Shown here: positions 1-9,870 of the stretch, piece after piece
How the letters are laid out: every line of letters begins with the position of its first letter
How positions within the stretch are numbered: the stretch's first letter is position 1
Virus record (IMG/VR): IMGVR_UViG_2648501400_000005
Source of the DNA: a virus
Lineage: Duplodnaviria > Heunggongvirae > Uroviricota > Caudoviricetes
DNA: 10,324 nt
Reading direction: 5' to 3' (one strand)
The notes under the pieces: model-generated
Told to the model about the DNA's origin: nothing
Seen by the model: the letters and a program-made list of their open reading frames with translations, nothing else
Databases searched by the model: none
Translations under genes and position numbers: made by a program

Positions 1-405
1 AATATCTGGAGCACTGGAGGTATCAACCAGTTCCAGTGCGTCCAGATAATCCAGCCACAAATTATATTGCACCAGTTCCTCACCTTTCAGGCGACCAATC
101 GCCGCTTTACCAGGCCATTGCTTACTGTTTATGTATTCGTTGACCTGATTAATCAATTGCTGCTTTTTCAGTTCGGCTGCGGCAATTTGTTCCTCATGAG
201 TTGGCGGTGGAATATCAATCCATGCAGGCATTCCGTCGATGACACCTCTGTATTTTCCTTCTGGTGCTTCCTTCATAAATTCGGCGGCAACAGTGTCGTC
301 AATTTCGATTCCATCATCGGGCCATTCGCCGGATTCCTGATAAGCGATTTTAAGCTCCACAGGGAAAAACGCATTTTTATCGGCACTGAAAATATATTTC
401 TGCAT
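1..405 (-). CDS. Tail fibre assembly protein (Tfa/U family); N-terminal 135 codons in window, C-terminus runs off the left edge
   Basis: My own translation of the minus strand from the ATG at 405-403 gives MQKYIFSADKNAFFPVELKIAYQESGEWPDDGIEIDD...ELVDTSSAPDI with no stop before position 1. The ending resembles the conserved Tfa C-terminal motif (lambda Tfa ...DTSTAPDIEWP). An SD-like AGGACGG lies just upstream on the minus strand. It is absent from the supplied ORF track because it leaves the window. Confidence 0.8.
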   Translation of the reverse strand, partial: MQKYIFSADKNAFFPVELKIAYQESGEWPDDGIEIDDTVAAEFMKEAPEGKYRGVIDGMPAWIDIPPPTHEEQIAAAELKKQQLINQVNEYINSKQWPGKAAIGRLKGEELVQYNLWLDYLDALELVDTSSAPDI

Positions 406-407
406 TT

Positions 408-806
408 CTACCGTCCTATCGAAATATAACTGAATCTGTATTGCTGTGAGATATCACTGGTTGCCACACGCCACGCTGAATTACTGATATGTTCAAAATT
501 TACAGACAAAACCTGCGGGGCAGGACTCGACGGGTCTGACTGAACGGCATCAGACATAACACTGACTGAAACCATCGGCTGATTAGGGAATGGTATAGGG
601 AAGTGTCCACTGATAAAGCGGGTCGTGTTTCCTGAAAAAGTGCCAAACTGAACAATATATCCACCTGGTAGCCTGAACCATCCCGAACCAGAAGCGAATG
701 CTCCCATATCCGGTATCTGATTATCTCCTGTGCCCACATCCCTTTTCGCCGCTTCTCCCAAACCAACGTTTATGAAAATGCAGAGATAACGGGCAACTGG
801 CATCAT
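408..806 (-). CDS. Tail fibre C-terminal variable segment (Mu S'v / e14 StfE-like cassette), probably the silent copy in the present orientation; the 5' boundary is not a real start
   Basis: Minus-strand ORF whose stop (410-408) sits 2 nt before the tfa ATG (405-403), suggesting coupling. The reading frame runs through the candidate crossover site at 753-778. Its position right next to the invertase gene matches the Mu G-segment and e14 layout. Assignment is by synteny; I cannot confirm homology by eye. Confidence 0.5.
   Translation of the reverse strand: MMPVARYLCIFINVGLGEAAKRDVGTGDNQIPDMGAFASGSGWFRLPGGYIVQFGTFSGNTTRFISGHFPIPFPNQPMVSVSVMSDAVQSDPSSPAPQVLSVNFEHISNSAWRVATSDISQQYRFSYISIGR
753..778. 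other. Candidate 26-bp DNA-invertase crossover site (hix/gix/pix-like) with central AA dinucleotide
   Basis: Sequence TTCTCCCAAACC-AA-CGTTTATGAAAA is an imperfect dyad. It closely resembles hixL as I recall it (TTCTTGAAAACCAAGGTTTTTGATAA). It lies about 55 bp upstream of the invertase start and inside the tail-fibre reading frame. Confidence 0.6.
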
Positions 807-833
807 CTCCGGTTTTTATTCAGGGGGATGCTC

Positions 834-1427
834 ATGCTTATTGGCTATGTACGCGTGTCAACAAATGACCAGAACACGGAATTGCAGCGTAACGCGCTGG
901 AGTGCGCAGGATGTGAGCTGATTTTTGAGGATAAAATCAGCGGCACTAAGTCCGACCGACCGGGACTGAAAAAACTGCTCAGGACATTATCGGAGGGGGA
1001 TACACTGGTGGTCTGGAAGCTGGACAGGCTGGGGCGTAGTATGCGGCATCTGGTCATTCTGGTTGAGGAACTGCGCGAACGCGGCGTTAATTTTCGCAGC
1101 CTGACGGATGCTATTGATACCAGCACGCCGATGGGGCGTTTTTTCTTTCATGTGATGGGTGCCCTGGCTGAAATGGAACGAGAACTCATTGTCGAGCGGA
1201 CACGCGCCGGACTGGAAGCGGCCAGAGCTAAAGGTCGTATTGGTGGCAGACGTCCGAAGCTCACCGCGAGTGAGTGGGAACAGGCAGGACGGTTGCTGGC
1301 TGCGGGTGAATCACGTCAACGCGTGGCGCTGATTTTTGATATTGGCCTGTCCACGCTCTATAAAAAATTCCCCTCATCAGCGACAAAAAATAAATTGTGC
1401 CATCCCTTAGCCAACCGGGACAAATAG
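834..1427 (+). CDS. Serine recombinase, DNA invertase of the Gin/Cin/Pin/Hin family
   Basis: Translation MLIGYVRVSTNDQNT...DRPGLKKLL...VVWKLDRLGRS...MGRFFFHVMGALAEMERELI...GRIGGRRPKL...LSTLYKK has the catalytic-serine motif (YVRVSTNDQ) and a C-terminal HTH typical of Gin/Pin. The start is set at ATG 834 (GGGGGA 823-828, 5-nt spacer), not the track's ATG 828, which has no spacer. Confidence 0.9.
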   Translation: MLIGYVRVSTNDQNTELQRNALECAGCELIFEDKISGTKSDRPGLKKLLRTLSEGDTLVVWKLDRLGRSMRHLVILVEELRERGVNFRSLTDAIDTSTPMGRFFFHVMGALAEMERELIVERTRAGLEAARAKGRIGGRRPKLTASEWEQAGRLLAAGESRQRVALIFDIGLSTLYKKFPSSATKNKLCHPLANRDK

Positions 1428-1486
1428 CCTGACATCTCCGGCACAACTGAAAATATCACTCACCCATTAACCACGGAGTTAAACGG

Positions 1487-2677
1487 ATGAGTGACTATCA
1501 TCACGGCGTGCAGGTGCTGGAGATTAACGACGGCACCCGTGTCATTTCCACCGTATCCACTGCCATTGTTGGCATGGTCTGCACGGCCAGCGATGCGGAT
1601 GCGGAAACCTTCCCCCTCAATAAACCGGTGCTGATTACCAATGTGCAGAGCGCAATTGCAAAGGCCGGTAAAAAAGGCACGCTGGCGGCATCGTTGCAGG
1701 CTATCGCCGACCAGTCAAAACCGGTCACCGTTGTTGTGCGCGTGGAGGACGGCACCGGCGACGACGAAGAAACGAAACTTGCGCAGACCGTTTCCAATAT
1801 CATCGGCACCACCGACGAAAACGGTCAGTACACCGGACTGAAAGCCCTGCTGGCGGCGGAGTCAGTAACCGGTGTTAAACCGCGTATTCTCGGCGTGCCG
1901 GGACTGGACACCAAAGAGGTGGCTGTTGCACTGGCATCAGTCTGTCAGAAGCTGCGCGCTTTCGGGTATATCAGCGCATGGGGCTGTAAGACCATTTCCG
2001 AGGTGAAAGCCTACCGCCAGAATTTCAGCCAGCGTGAGCTGATGGTCATCTGGCCGGATTTCCTCGCATGGGATACGGTCGCCAGTACCACCGCCACCGC
2101 GTATGCCACCGCCCGTGCGCTGGGCCTGCGCGCTAAAATCGACCAGGAGCAGGGCTGGCATAAAACGCTGTCCAACGTCGGGGTAAACGGTGTTACCGGC
2201 ATCAGTGCCTCTGTATTCTGGGATTTGCAGGAGTCCGGCACCGATGCTGACCTGTTGAACGAGTCAGGTGTCACAACGTTGATTCGCCGTGACGGTTTCC
2301 GCTTCTGGAGTAACCGTACCTGCTCGGATGACCCGCTGTTCCTCTTTGAAAACTATACCCGCACCGCGCAGGTGCTGGCCGACACGATGGCTGAGGCGCA
2401 CATGTGGGCGGTGGACAAGCCCATCACCGCAACGCTGATTCGCGACATTGTTGACGGCATCAATGCCAAATTCCGTGAGCTGAAAACAAACGGCTATATC
2501 GTGGATGCGACCTGCTGGTTCAGCGAAGAATCCAACGATGCGGAAACCCTCAAGGCCGGAAAACTGTATATCGACTACGACTATACACCGGTGCCTCCTC
2601 TTGAAAACCTGACCCTGCGCCAGCGTATTACCGATAAATACCTGGCAAATCTGGTCACCTCGGTTAACAGCAATTAA
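1487..2677 (+). CDS. FI: Contractile tail sheath protein (P2 gpFI homologue)
   Basis: 396-aa ORF beginning MSDYHHGVQVLEINDGTRVISTV..., recognisable as P2 FI. GGAG lies upstream of the ATG. It is the first gene of the FI-FII-E-T-U-D block. Confidence 0.93.
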   Translation: MSDYHHGVQVLEINDGTRVISTVSTAIVGMVCTASDADAETFPLNKPVLITNVQSAIAKAGKKGTLAASLQAIADQSKPVTVVVRVEDGTGDDEETKLAQTVSNIIGTTDENGQYTGLKALLAAESVTGVKPRILGVPGLDTKEVAVALASVCQKLRAFGYISAWGCKTISEVKAYRQNFSQRELMVIWPDFLAWDTVASTTATAYATARALGLRAKIDQEQGWHKTLSNVGVNGVTGISASVFWDLQESGTDADLLNESGVTTLIRRDGFRFWSNRTCSDDPLFLFENYTRTAQVLADTMAEAHMWAVDKPITATLIRDIVDGINAKFRELKTNGYIVDATCWFSEESNDAETLKAGKLYIDYDYTPVPPLENLTLRQRITDKYLANLVTSVNSN

Positions 2678-2689
2678 GGAGCCTGACCG

Positions 2690-3208
2690 ATGGCAATGCC
2701 GCGCAAACTCAAGTTAATGAACGTCTTTCTGAACGGCTACAGCTATCAGGGCGTCGCGAAGTCCGTCACGCTACCAAAACTGACCCGTAAGCTCGAAAAC
2801 TATCGCGGTGCGGGGATGAACGGCAGCGCACCGGTAGACCTCGGCCTTGATGACGATGCGCTGTCAATGGAGTGGTCGCTCGGTGGCTTCCCGGATTCGG
2901 TTATCTGGGAGCTTTACGCCGCAACCGGTGTGGATTCCGTACCGATTCGTTTTGCAGGCTCTTACCAGCGCGACGATACCGGCGAAACGGTGGCCGTCGA
3001 GGTGGTCATGCGTGGACGTCAGAAAGAAATCGACACCGGCGAGGGCAAACAGGGAGAAGACACCGAGTCGAAAATCTCCGTGGTCTGCACCTATTTCCGG
3101 CTGACGATGGACGGTAAGGAGCTGGTCGAAATCGACACCATCAACATGATTGAGAAGGTGAACGGCGTCGACCGGCTGGAGCAACACCGCCGCAATATCG
3201 GCCTGTGA
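2690..3208 (+). CDS. FII: Tail tube protein (P2 gpFII homologue)
   Basis: 172-aa ORF MAMPRKLKLMNVFLNGYSYQGVAKSV... with AAGGAG 2676-2681 upstream, starting 12 nt after the FI stop. Confidence 0.92.
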   Translation: MAMPRKLKLMNVFLNGYSYQGVAKSVTLPKLTRKLENYRGAGMNGSAPVDLGLDDDALSMEWSLGGFPDSVIWELYAATGVDSVPIRFAGSYQRDDTGETVAVEVVMRGRQKEIDTGEGKQGEDTESKISVVCTYFRLTMDGKELVEIDTINMIEKVNGVDRLEQHRRNIGL

Positions 3209-3264
3209 TTTTCATCCGGTCAGCCTGGCTGACCGGTTAACCCCGATTCAGAAGTGAGAAAACC

Positions 3265-3540
3265 ATGAACAAAGAAAATGTGATTACCCTGGACAATCCG
3301 GTCAAGCGTGGTGAGCAGGTTATCGAACAGGTCACGCTGATGAAACCTAATGCCGGGACGCTGCGCGGTGTCAGTCTGGCTGCGGTCGCGAACTCCGAAG
3401 TCGATGCACTGATTAAGGTGCTGCCGCGCATGACGGCACCGATGCTGACCGAGCAGGAAGTCGCCGCGCTGGAACTGCCTGACCTTGTGGCGCTGGCCGG
3501 TAAGGTGGTCGGTTTTTTGTCGCCGAACTCGGTGCGGTAA
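3265..3540 (+). CDS. E: Tail assembly chaperone E (P2 gpE homologue), zero-frame product
   Basis: 91-aa ORF MNKENVITLDNPVKRGEQVIEQVTLMKPNAG... in the position and at the size of P2 E. It contains a T6G slippery run near its 3' end. Confidence 0.9.
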   Translation: MNKENVITLDNPVKRGEQVIEQVTLMKPNAGTLRGVSLAAVANSEVDALIKVLPRMTAPMLTEQEVAALELPDLVALAGKVVGFLSPNSVR

Positions 3541-3692
3541 CGTTCCCGAAAAATCTCTCGGTCGATGACCTGATGGCGGATGTGGCAGTGATATTTCACT
3601 GGCCGCCATCAGAACTGTATCCCATGAGCCTGACCGAACTCATCACATGGCGCGAAAAGGCGCTCCGGCGAAGCGGAAACACGAATGAGTAA
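3265..3692 (+). CDS. E': Tail assembly chaperone E+E', produced by a programmed -1 ribosomal frameshift at 3513-3519 (predicted 142 aa)
   Basis: The -1 frame is open from 3519 (VAELGAVTFPKNLSVDDLMADVAVIFHWPPSELYPMSLTELITWREKALRRSGNTNE) to a TAA at 3690-3692, overlapping the T start at 3685. P2 is known to make E+E' this way, analogous to lambda G/GT. Confidence 0.7.
3513..3519 (+). other. Slippery heptamer T_TTT_TTG for the E/E' -1 frameshift
   Basis: Seen directly: GGT TTT TTG in the E frame. A -1 slip continues into a 57-codon open frame. Confidence 0.7.
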
Positions 3693-6132
3693 CAATGTAA
3701 AATTACAGGTATTGCTCAGGGCTGTTGACCAGGCATCCCGCCCGTTTAAATCCATCCGCACAGCGAGTAAGTCGCTGTCGGGGGATATCCGGGAAACACA
3801 AAAATCACTGCGCGAGCTGAACGGTCACGCATCCCGTATTGAGGGATTTCGCAAGACCAGCGCACAGCTTGCCGTGACTGGTCATGCACTTGAAAAGGCA
3901 CGGCAGGAAGCCGAAGCCCTTGCCACACAGTTTAAAAACACTGAACGTCCGACCCGTGCTCAGGCGAAAGTGCTGGAATCCGCAAAGCGTGCGGCGGAGG
4001 ACTTACAGGCGAAATATAACCGCCTGACAGATTCCATTAAACGCCAGCAGCGGGAACTGGCCGCTGTGGGAATTAATACCCGCAATCTTGCACATGATGA
4101 GCAGGGACTGAAAAACCGTATCAGTGAAACCACCGCACAGCTTAACCGTCAGCGTGACGCGCTGGCGCGTGTCAGTGCACAACAGGCAAAACTTAACGCA
4201 GTAAAACAGCGTTATCAGGCCGGAAAGGAACTGGCCGGAAATATGGCCTCAGTGGGCGCTGCCGGTGTGGGGATTGCTGCTGCGGGAACGATGGCCGGAG
4301 TTAAGTTGCTGATGCCCGGTTATGAGTTTGCGCAGAAAAACTCAGAATTGCAGGCTGTGCTCGGTGTGGCAAAAGACTCCGCCGAAATGACCGCACTACG
4401 CAAACAGGCGCGCCAGCTCGGCGACAATACCGCCGCCTCGGCGAATGATGCGGCCGGTGCACAGATAATCATCGCGAAAGCGGGTGGGGATGTTGATGCC
4501 ATTCAGGCGGCAACGCCGGTCACGCTGAATATGGCGCTGGCGAACCGCCGCACGATGGAAGAAAACGCCGCCCTGCTGATGGGGATGAAATCCGCCTTTC
4601 AGCTTTCAAACGATAAGGTCGCTCATATCGGGGATGTTCTCTCCATGACGATGAACAAAACCGCCGCCGATTTTGACGGCATGAGCGATGCGCTGACCTA
4701 TGCCGCACCTGTGGCAAAAAATGCCGGTGTCAGCATTGAAGAAACCGCCGCAATGGTCGGGGCGCTGCATGATGCAAAAATCACAGGCTCAATGGCGGGG
4801 ACGGGAAGCCGTGCCGTGTTAAGCCGCCTGCAGGCACCGACGGGAAAAGCATGGGATGCACTCAAAGAGCTTGGAGTGAAAACCTCAGACAGCAAGGGAA
4901 ACACCCGGCCAATATTTACCATTCTGAAAGAAATGCAGGCCAGTTTTGAGAAAAACCGGCTCGGTACTGCCCAGCAGGCTGAATACATGAAAACTATTTT
5001 CGGGGAGGAGGCCAGCTCAGCCGCCGCCGTGCTGATGACTGCCGCCTCAACCGGAAAGCTGGACAAACTGACCGCTGCGTTTAAAGCCTCAGACGGGAAG
5101 ACCGCCGAGCTGGTAAATATCATGCAGGACAACCTAGGCGGTGACTTTAAGGAGTTTCAGTCCGCTTATGAGGCGGTGGGGACTGACCTGTTTGACCAGC
5201 AGGAAGGCGCACTGCGTAAGCTCACGCAGACGGCCACAAAGTATGTGTTAAAACTCGACGGCTGGATACAGAAAAACAAATCACTGGCGTCAACCATCGG
5301 CATCATTGTCGGTGGTGCACTGGCGCTGACTGGTGTCATCGGTGCCATTGGCCTCATAGCCTGGCCGGTTATCACCGGCATCAATGCCATCATCGCGGCA
5401 GCAGGCGCAATGGGGGCAATCTTCACGACGGTTGGCAGTGCTGTTATGACCGCCATCGGGGCGATTAGCTGGCCGGTTGTGGCCGTGGTGGCCGCCATTG
5501 TCGCCGGGGCGTTGCTTATCCGTAAATACTGGGAGCCTGTCAGCGCATTCTTTGGCGGTGTGGTGGAAGGGCTGAAAGCGGCATTTGCGCCGGTGGGGGA
5601 ACTGTTCACGCCACTGAAACCGGTGTTTGACTGGCTGGGCGAAAAGTTACAGGCCGCGTGGCAGTGGTTTACAAACCTGATTGCTCCGGTTAAAGCCACC
5701 CAGGACACCCTGAACCGTTGCCGTGATACGGGCGTCATGTTCGGGCAGGCACTGGCTGACGCGCTGATGCTGCCGCTTAATGCGTTCAACAAACTGCGCA
5801 GCGGTATTGACTGGGTACTGGAAAAACTCGGTGTTATCAACAAAGAGTCAGACACACTTGACCAGACCGCCGCCAGAACTCATGCCGCCACGTATGGCAC
5901 CGGTGGTTATATTCCGGCGACCAGCTCTTATGCAGGCTATCAGGCTTATCAGCCGGTCACGGCACCGGCTGGCCGCTCTTATGTGGACCAGAGTAAAAAC
6001 GAATATCACATCAGCCTGACGGGTGGTACTGCGCCGGGGACACAGCTCGACCGCCAGTTACAGGATGCGCTCGAAAAATACGAGCGGGATAAACGTGCGC
6101 GCGCCCGTGCCAGCATGATGCATGACGGTTAA
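3685..6132 (+). CDS. T: Tail tape measure protein (P2 gpT homologue)
   Basis: 815-aa ORF with an N-terminal coiled-coil-like, Q/A/K/R-rich region, a central Ala/Gly-rich hydrophobic stretch (GIIVGGALALTGVIGAIGLIAWPV...) and the P2 T length. It immediately follows E/E'. Confidence 0.9.
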   Translation: MSNNVKLQVLLRAVDQASRPFKSIRTASKSLSGDIRETQKSLRELNGHASRIEGFRKTSAQLAVTGHALEKARQEAEALATQFKNTERPTRAQAKVLESAKRAAEDLQAKYNRLTDSIKRQQRELAAVGINTRNLAHDEQGLKNRISETTAQLNRQRDALARVSAQQAKLNAVKQRYQAGKELAGNMASVGAAGVGIAAAGTMAGVKLLMPGYEFAQKNSELQAVLGVAKDSAEMTALRKQARQLGDNTAASANDAAGAQIIIAKAGGDVDAIQAATPVTLNMALANRRTMEENAALLMGMKSAFQLSNDKVAHIGDVLSMTMNKTAADFDGMSDALTYAAPVAKNAGVSIEETAAMVGALHDAKITGSMAGTGSRAVLSRLQAPTGKAWDALKELGVKTSDSKGNTRPIFTILKEMQASFEKNRLGTAQQAEYMKTIFGEEASSAAAVLMTAASTGKLDKLTAAFKASDGKTAELVNIMQDNLGGDFKEFQSAYEAVGTDLFDQQEGALRKLTQTATKYVLKLDGWIQKNKSLASTIGIIVGGALALTGVIGAIGLIAWPVITGINAIIAAAGAMGAIFTTVGSAVMTAIGAISWPVVAVVAAIVAGALLIRKYWEPVSAFFGGVVEGLKAAFAPVGELFTPLKPVFDWLGEKLQAAWQWFTNLIAPVKATQDTLNRCRDTGVMFGQALADALMLPLNAFNKLRSGIDWVLEKLGVINKESDTLDQTAARTHAATYGTGGYIPATSSYAGYQAYQPVTAPAGRSYVDQSKNEYHISLTGGTAPGTQLDRQLQDALEKYERDKRARARASMMHDG

Positions 6133-8191: not shown

Positions 8192-8218
8192 AAAAAATAA
8201 GCCCGTGTAAGGGAGATT
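8192..8218. other. Prophage attR core (P2-type att core), overlapping the 3' end of cyaR
   Basis: AAAAAATAAGCCCGTGTAAGGGAGATT matches the 27-nt P2 att core as I recall it. It sits at the boundary between the phage gene ogr and the host gene yegQ. Confidence 0.55.
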
Positions 8219-9724: not shown

Positions 9725-9870
9725 AATTCTCTCGTTCTGATGACAGGTCAGAGCCGCTTCACCTGATGAAGCGGTTAGGGGAGTGCCCCCACTTTAAGGG
9801 CGGGCATTGTAGCGCTGTGGGGGTAACTGGTAAAGCGCCGGACGCCAACAACCTACGCCCGGCATCGTAA

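Follow-up and report, generated by a model that had tools for sequence, protein, structure and literature searches.

The archetypes of tail-fibre DNA-inversion switches are the G segment of phage Mu, with its invertase Gin, and the C segment of phage P1, with its invertase Cin. In both, the constant N-terminus of the fibre is encoded outside the invertible segment and two convergent Sv-U cassettes are located inside it, while the invertase gene lies just outside the segment and carries the enhancer within it. A P2-family example is Fels-2 of Salmonella LT2, in which the annotated gene order is H, G, G' (inverted), H' (inverted), invertase and FI. Kutsukake et al. 2006 is reportedly the likely primary source on Fin, the invertase of Fels-2. 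In the P2 record itself, gene G is followed by a terminator, fun(Z) on the minus strand, the binding site for the activator of the late promoter PF, the PF start and then FI, so that P2 has fun(Z) and a terminator in this slot, without an invertase or a second cassette. The likely primary source on diversity at the Z/fun locus is said to be Nilsson et al. 2004. More recent work describes swapping of tail fibre and assembly genes at the Z/fun hotspot in P2-like phages, and a DNA invertase that is often encoded at this locus with the adjacent genes inverted (Egorov et al. 2024, bioRxiv 10.1101/2024.10.15.618418). The P region of e14, a defective lambdoid remnant, is laid out as stfP-tfaP / tfaE-stfE (inverted) / pinE, and its inversion has been demonstrated experimentally (PMC4272514, PMC12529663). 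In P2-like prophages of EPEC E2348/69, an invertase is likewise accompanied by alternative fibre C-termini; whole-genome sequencing and PCR showed orientations to coexist in two of these prophages, and all such variable loci alternate tail-fibre structures according to the same authors (Goldberg et al. 2014, PMC4272514).

We analysed a stretch of 10,324 bp (hereafter the window) that is a whole draft contig (JHSW01000069.1, GCA_001266175.1). We assign positions 1-1427, with a probability of about 0.9, to the right-hand part of a Gin/Pin-type tail-fibre inversion switch together with its invertase, in a P2-like prophage of E. coli located next to yegQ. As the contig has no sequence beyond the window, the invertible segment is cut short: the contig lacks the left crossover site as well as the expressed cassette and the H constant part, and the portion of the segment within the window amounts to 764 bp, the right-hand 40% of a segment that measures 1.8-1.9 kb in the closest relatives. 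The original prediction, made from the sequence alone, had correctly recognized that only the right half was present, and each of the four elements that it described in positions 1-1427 was found, displaced by a few bases at most from the place given for it. The features to which we refer are the following:

1-405, minus strand: tail-fibre assembly (chaperone) gene tfa' of the currently unexpressed cassette (Pfam Caudo_TAP, E 7e-30)
408-764, minus strand: variable tail-fibre C-terminus (Sv'-like cassette) in the invertible segment, pointing away from H (Pfam Gp53-like_C, E 3e-9)
753-778, plus strand: 26-bp crossover site at the right end of the invertible segment, TTCTCCCAAACC-AA-CGTTTATGAAAA, identical to the e14 site beside pinE
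765-806, minus strand: leader outside the segment, with ATG ATG at 806-801, opening an ORF that runs through the crossover site into the stored cassette (ORF list)
779-833, plus strand: spacer separating the crossover site from the invertase start, near-identical to the e14 spacer before pinE
834-1427, plus strand: DNA invertase of the Gin/Cin/Pin/Hin group, 197 aa, with Resolvase and HTH_7 domains
852-923, plus strand: probable recombinational enhancer (sis, Fis-binding) at the 5' end of the invertase gene, by positional homology to the P1 cin enhancer
1395-1486, plus strand: P2 late promoter PF region, by alignment with the P2 record, in which the Ogr/activator site and the transcription start are annotated
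1487-2677, plus strand: tail sheath gene FI, the conserved right-hand neighbour of the cargo slot (Pfam Phage_sheath_1, Phage_sheath_1C and Gp18_domIII_N)

Downstream of the module, the window contains FI, FII, E/E', T, U, D, ogr and attR in this order, and all prophage-arm genes up to attR are intact ORFs in the ORF list; FI is 95-98% identical to the FI genes of the P2 family. Positions 8192-8218 hold what we take to be an exact copy of the att core of P2, with the host genes yegQ and yegP beyond it, which identifies the window as the right arm of a P2-like prophage inserted beside yegQ. Since the contig ends within the segment and no complete E. coli genome matched the entire window at more than 97.8%, we used relatives as a stand-in for the left half. 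Region 1-1486 was found at full length and with 96-99% identity in 85 complete E. coli genomes.

Comparison with the P2 record by megablast located the right boundary of the module. Homology to P2 resumes at window position 1395, which corresponds to P2 position 17560 and falls inside the annotated activator site of PF; the module (second tfa, second fibre tip, crossover site and invertase) therefore fills the Z/fun slot exactly, and its right bound, the PF activator site, is the same as in P2. The placement of the switch between G and FI, where P2 carries Z/fun, was thus correctly predicted. The last 11 codons of the invertase gene and its stop codon (1425-1427) lie within this P2-homologous promoter DNA, and the C-terminal tail of the protein is 13 aa longer than that of PinE because it is encoded by PF promoter DNA. 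Fels-2 has its invertase and inverted genes in the same slot, with other cassettes, a slightly different crossover site (TTCGCCTAAACCGAGGTTTATGAAAA) and a nucleotide identity of about 76%. The e14 module shares the layout and the gp53-like cassette type with that of the window, but e14 is a lambdoid remnant whereas the window module lies among P2-type tail genes, with G on one side and PF-FI on the other.

The invertase ORF spans 828-1427 (199 aa), and the RefSeq relatives begin at its second ATG, at 834, which gives a protein of 197 aa; the original prediction was right about the Gin/Pin family and off by one about the length, which it had put at 198 aa. Pfam searches returned Resolvase (PF00239, E 2e-52) and HTH_7 (PF02796, E 1e-12, residues 140-183), and the best match among solved structures was Mu Gin (3uj3, E 1.7e-94). 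With its catalytic domain, its C-terminal HTH and a length close to 190 aa, the protein belongs to the small serine recombinases. Alignment to known members bore out its place in the Gin/Cin/Pin/Hin group, with 85% identity to PinE of e14, 85% to Fin of Fels-2, 78% to Cin of P1 and 77% to Gin of Mu. The nucleophile Ser9 is present, and Ser9, Arg7, Asp64, Arg65 and Arg68 are invariant in the alignment with Gin, Cin, PinE and Fin. The exact 197-aa sequence occurs in 4,932 blocks of a public protein-position index. Upstream of the gene, the spacer at 779-833 presumably carries the invertase promoter and a ribosome-binding site (GGGGGA at 823-828); a simple sigma-70 consensus scan of 779-833 returned no invertase promoter.

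The 5' end of the invertase gene was compared with P1 cin, in whose record an enhancer is annotated at nt 19-90 of the gene, equivalent by position to 852-923 in the window. Identity to P1 cin is 81% over this stretch and 67% over the remainder of the gene. Among five invertase genes, synonymous codons were identical in 56% of pairs for codons 7-30, against 40% for codons 31-180, and the Fisher p of 1e-5 attached to this synonymous conservation is indicative only, given the non-independence of the pairs. The gene sequence also contains two 15-mers that have G and C at their ends, at nt 23-37 and 71-85 and with centres 48 bp apart; a scan with a degenerate Fis consensus listed only the second of them, and its matches were not discriminating. 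Taken from the sequence, a Fis-binding enhancer within the 5' end of the invertase gene is probable.

The 26-bp crossover site at 753-778, predicted at exactly these positions, consists of two 12-bp half-sites around a 2-bp core, with the central dinucleotide at 765-766. It is present as a single exact copy in the window and was found in 0 of 200 shuffled sequences, even with 3 mismatches allowed. The site aligns with Mu gixR, with which it shares 17 of 26 positions, and with the Fels-2 site, and the inverted repeats of e14 are quoted with the same core (PMC12529663). A search of the window for a partner site with up to 3 mismatches returned none, as expected. In the relatives, by contrast with the truncated window, an inverted partner was located inside gene H in all 18 complete examples examined, at a distance of 1.8-3.2 kb to the left. 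The six relatives inspected for gene order (L001-L006) each have exactly one such partner, TTCTCGCATACC-TT-GGTTTGGGAGAA, inverted inside H and 1.78-1.90 kb to the left. The site halves inside the segment are perfect inverted repeats in the relatives and the outer halves differ. Two inverted copies of the exact 14-mer TTGGTTTGGGAGAA occur in 15 related loci, e14 included, and the others carry a variant site pair: in two prophages with an identical invertase (L015 and L019), the 14-mer is absent and the variant sites are about 3.2 kb apart. The relatives of the window have exactly two sites, and a shufflon with additional ones, of the kind found in an EPEC prophage whose locus has three inverted repeats and four variants, was therefore ruled out.

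To the left of the site, the window holds the inversely oriented pair that had been predicted, a tail-fibre C-terminus with a Gp53-like_C match followed by tfa' with a Caudo_TAP match, both on the minus strand. The sequence of tfa' at 1-405 covers the N-terminal 135 of about 146 codons, its 3' end being lost at the contig end, and a tail fiber assembly protein of 146 aa is annotated at the matching position in relatives. The cassette at 408-764 is promoterless and has no N-terminal fibre shaft of its own. Together with the leader it forms the minus-strand ORF 408-806 (132 aa), which accounts for the Gp53-like_C match (E 3e-9). The in-frame leader, M(M)P...IFINVGLGE, is common to 21 related loci, including e14, Fels-2 and Mu; the start codon of this leader lies 28 nt beyond the segment boundary and is shared by Mu, Fels-2, e14 and the P2-like prophages, and the cassette in the silent slot is always part of an ORF opened by this codon.

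Gene order was the same in all six of the relatives L001-L006: H, tfa (plus strand), a convergent tfa (minus strand), a fibre C-terminus (minus strand), invertase and FI. Each cassette is followed by its own tfa and the two cassettes are convergent, the right pair being visible in the window and the left pair in the relatives only. To reconstruct the alternative orientation, we joined in silico the constant part of H from a 99%-identical relative to the reverse complement of window positions 300-764 at the core dinucleotide. This flip yielded an open, in-frame H of 394 aa, in which ...LLAYLGLGE is continued by AAKRDVGTGDNQ...ISIGR and a stop codon, with the window's tfa directly after it; the residues on the two sides of the junction are ...LLAYLGLGE and AAKRDVG... 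Matches to this flipped junction over its full 901 bp came from 40 complete E. coli genomes, the highest identity being 99.3%, and in these the other cassette sits in the silent slot beside the invertase; the native junction region is present in 85 such genomes. The real counterpart of the flipped H is an ORF of 399 aa in EC4115.

Both orientations were also found among O157:H7 genomes, whose prophage at the same yegQ site encodes an invertase 98% identical to that of the window and has an identical right site: 49 genomes have one orientation and 76 the other. Between the O157:H7 isolates TW14359 and EC4115, the stretch of 1,901 bp delimited by the core dinucleotides is an exact reverse complement with 0 mismatches, the flanks are identical (800 bp on the left and 1,000 bp on the right), and the point of exchange is at the core. 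The tail-fibre switch interpretation is upheld by the in-frame flip, by the two orientations in complete genomes and by the inverted partner in H of the relatives. These sequence comparisons are strong, if indirect, evidence that the switch works; we regard it as real and probably active, and we infer its activity in this strain.

In the mechanism that we propose, the invertase would bind the two inverted 26-bp sites, one within H outside the contig and the other at 753-778. An invertase tetramer would synapse the two sites, activated by host Fis bound to the enhancer near the start of the invertase gene, and strands would be exchanged at the central dinucleotide. The 1.8-1.9 kb between the sites would then flip, at low frequency and reversibly, which would swap the receptor-binding C-terminus of H, together with the chaperone gene that follows, for the pair stored in reverse; in the window this stored pair corresponds to 408-764 and 1-405. 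A population of lysogens would in this way release virions with two fibre tips. Tetramer synapsis, Fis activation, a low flipping frequency and two receptor specificities are proposed here from the biology of Mu, P1, e14 and Hin. The dependence of inversion on Fis is likewise something that we infer by analogy, and a change of host range through the fibre-tip swap would follow the precedent of Mu and P1.

The switch could be a frozen relic in this particular strain, with the left site or H damaged or interrupted, so that no inversion would take place and a single fibre type would be made. The contig does stop inside the segment, and insertion sequences interrupt or adjoin the segment in some relatives that encode the exact invertase (an IS66-family element in L014, and L020). 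However, the invertase, the site, the cassette and all the downstream tail genes are intact ORFs, most relatives are complete, and a break at the repeated 3' end of tfa is the usual outcome of short-read assembly, all of which makes a relic decidedly unlikely.

We also considered that the module might serve mainly in host defence, the invertase flipping the segment of its own or of another prophage and the short receptor-binding protein encoded by ORF 408-806 blocking the adsorption of other phages. An adsorption-blocking defence has been reported for PinQ and StfE2 of e14 (PMC12529663), and the window has the same crossover core as e14 as well as a cassette that shares the Gp53-like_C domain with StfE2 (PMC12529663). 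The in-frame start outside the segment, conserved in the 21 related loci with a silent cassette that is always an ORF, points in the same direction, but an open leader of 14 codons lends it little weight. Moreover, the minus-strand ORF 408-806 starts only 27 bp from the invertase start, and the right arm of the prophage looks complete and functional, so that a function in the virion suffices to explain the module. A mainly defensive role is thus highly improbable; it is possible that such a role would add to the fibre-switch explanation, which it would not replace.

A narrower proposal is that the silent slot may be expressed, ORF 408-806 yielding a free gp53-like receptor-binding domain of 132 aa, in which case each flip would change both the fibre tip and a receptor-masking exclusion protein protecting the host. 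We consider this very unlikely. If true, it would extend the PinQ/StfE2 finding of e14 to thousands of intact P2-like prophages, and the open leader, conserved ahead of the silent cassette, is the sole loose end that deserves an experiment.

That the contig is an assembly chimera, joining the Pin-type invertase region of another prophage to P2 tail genes, was rejected as having a negligible chance: it is a short draft contig ending in a repeated gene family, but the same contiguous arrangement recurs at 97-99% identity in 85 complete E. coli genomes and in the isolated phages pro483 and MET_P1_103_31.

With the tail-fibre switch retained as the preferred reading, its layout was compared with those already described. 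It is of the Mu G-segment and e14 P-region type, as had been predicted, and it also matches the P1 C segment and Fels-2. Mu and P1 differ from the window module in their larger segments (3 and 4.2 kb, respectively) and in being unrelated host phages. Compared with e14, the right site is identical, the spacer is near-identical and PinE is the 85%-identical counterpart of the invertase. The module is carried by isolated P2-like phages, namely pro483, 500465-2, P2 of O157:H43 T22, MET_P1_103_31 and Klebsiella KP12, and the stretch from the invertase to FI is 97% identical between pro483 and the window. The novelty implied by the original prediction does not stand, as the layout is annotated in Fels-2 and in many P2-like phages and has been covered in the literature (PMC4272514; bioRxiv 10.1101/2024.10.15.618418). 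The feature is already known and very common, and what was correctly recognized is a textbook mechanism at a locus where annotations of it go back years. It accordingly carries little weight as a discovery, this type of switch being known and annotated in Fels-2, pro483 and others.

The comparison of relatives also bears on how such loci are read in genome data. Invertible segments break draft assemblies, and flips between otherwise identical isolates, such as TW14359 and EC4115, can pass for strain differences. They mislead automatic annotation as well: the EC4115 record gives a pseudogene and a fragment where H is in fact flipped and intact.

The silent slot, defined as the end of the invertible segment that lies beside the invertase gene and holds the inversely oriented tail-fibre C-terminus cassette and tfa, is preceded by an open leader:

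765-806, minus strand: leader with start codon ATG ATG, in the frame M(M)P...IFINVGLGE...

The ATG ATG is located 28 nt beyond the segment, and its frame passes the crossover site into either cassette occupying the silent slot. Both the start and the frame of this leader were kept in 21 related loci, including those of e14, Fels-2 and Mu together with every P2-like relative examined. Such conservation may simply reflect the constraints of the crossover site and of the invertase promoter. Alternatively, by analogy with what has been claimed for StfE2 of e14 (PMC12529663), translation of the silent cassette may yield a short independent protein.

For many phages and prophages, the match begins or ends no more than a few bases from the crossover site (window 750-752 or 771): the match to phage SKA5 spans window 1-771, and those to pro483 and S164 begin at window 744-752 and continue rightward. 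These breakpoints in sequence homology suggest that cassettes are swapped between elements at the crossover site, besides being inverted. In two related prophages (L014, 3687-6272, and L020, 6076-6780), insertion sequences of the IS66 family and with an rve-type transposase were located inside or beside the invertible segment. Both genomes carry exactly the invertase of the window, and the switch is presumably inactivated there by these insertions.

In E. coli O157:H7 EC4115 (NC_011353.1, locus L007), where the segment is in the flipped orientation, the tail-fibre gene H is annotated in RefSeq as a C-terminally incomplete pseudogene (2623-3012), with a separate “gp53-like domain-containing protein” at 3412-3822. 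The DNA at 2623-3822 forms a single intact ORF of 399 aa, showing that automatic annotation was misled by the inversion state.

The window corresponds to the full draft contig JHSW01000069.1 (10,324 bp, assembly GCA_001266175.1), whose end at window position 1 falls within the invertible segment, 11 codons short of the end of tfa. At that point in the relatives, two convergent tfa genes overlap and have a conserved 3' region in common. The contig end is probably a repeat-induced assembly break rather than a sign of mixed orientation, the latter being disfavoured because such a break would fall at the crossover sites.

On the other side of the switch, the invertase frame continues, at window 1395-1427, into sequence that shares homology with the PF promoter of P2. 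The last 11 codons and stop codon of the gene overlap with the annotated binding site for Ogr/activator, which places the cargo junction inside this site; the leftmost 5-6 bp that the site has in P2 are replaced in the window.

A 27-bp exact match to the P2 attachment core was found at window 8192-8218 and marks the prophage right end; a distance of 145 bp separates it from the 3' end of yegQ. At this place K-12 is not known to have more than the ogrK remnant. Relatives of the same prophage were also found at other sites, adjoining fieF or a pfl-like gene. Between yegQ and yegP, a ParDE-type toxin-antitoxin pair, absent from the window (corresponding positions 9725-9870) and from O157:H7, is inserted in GF4-3 (L003, 14828-15431).
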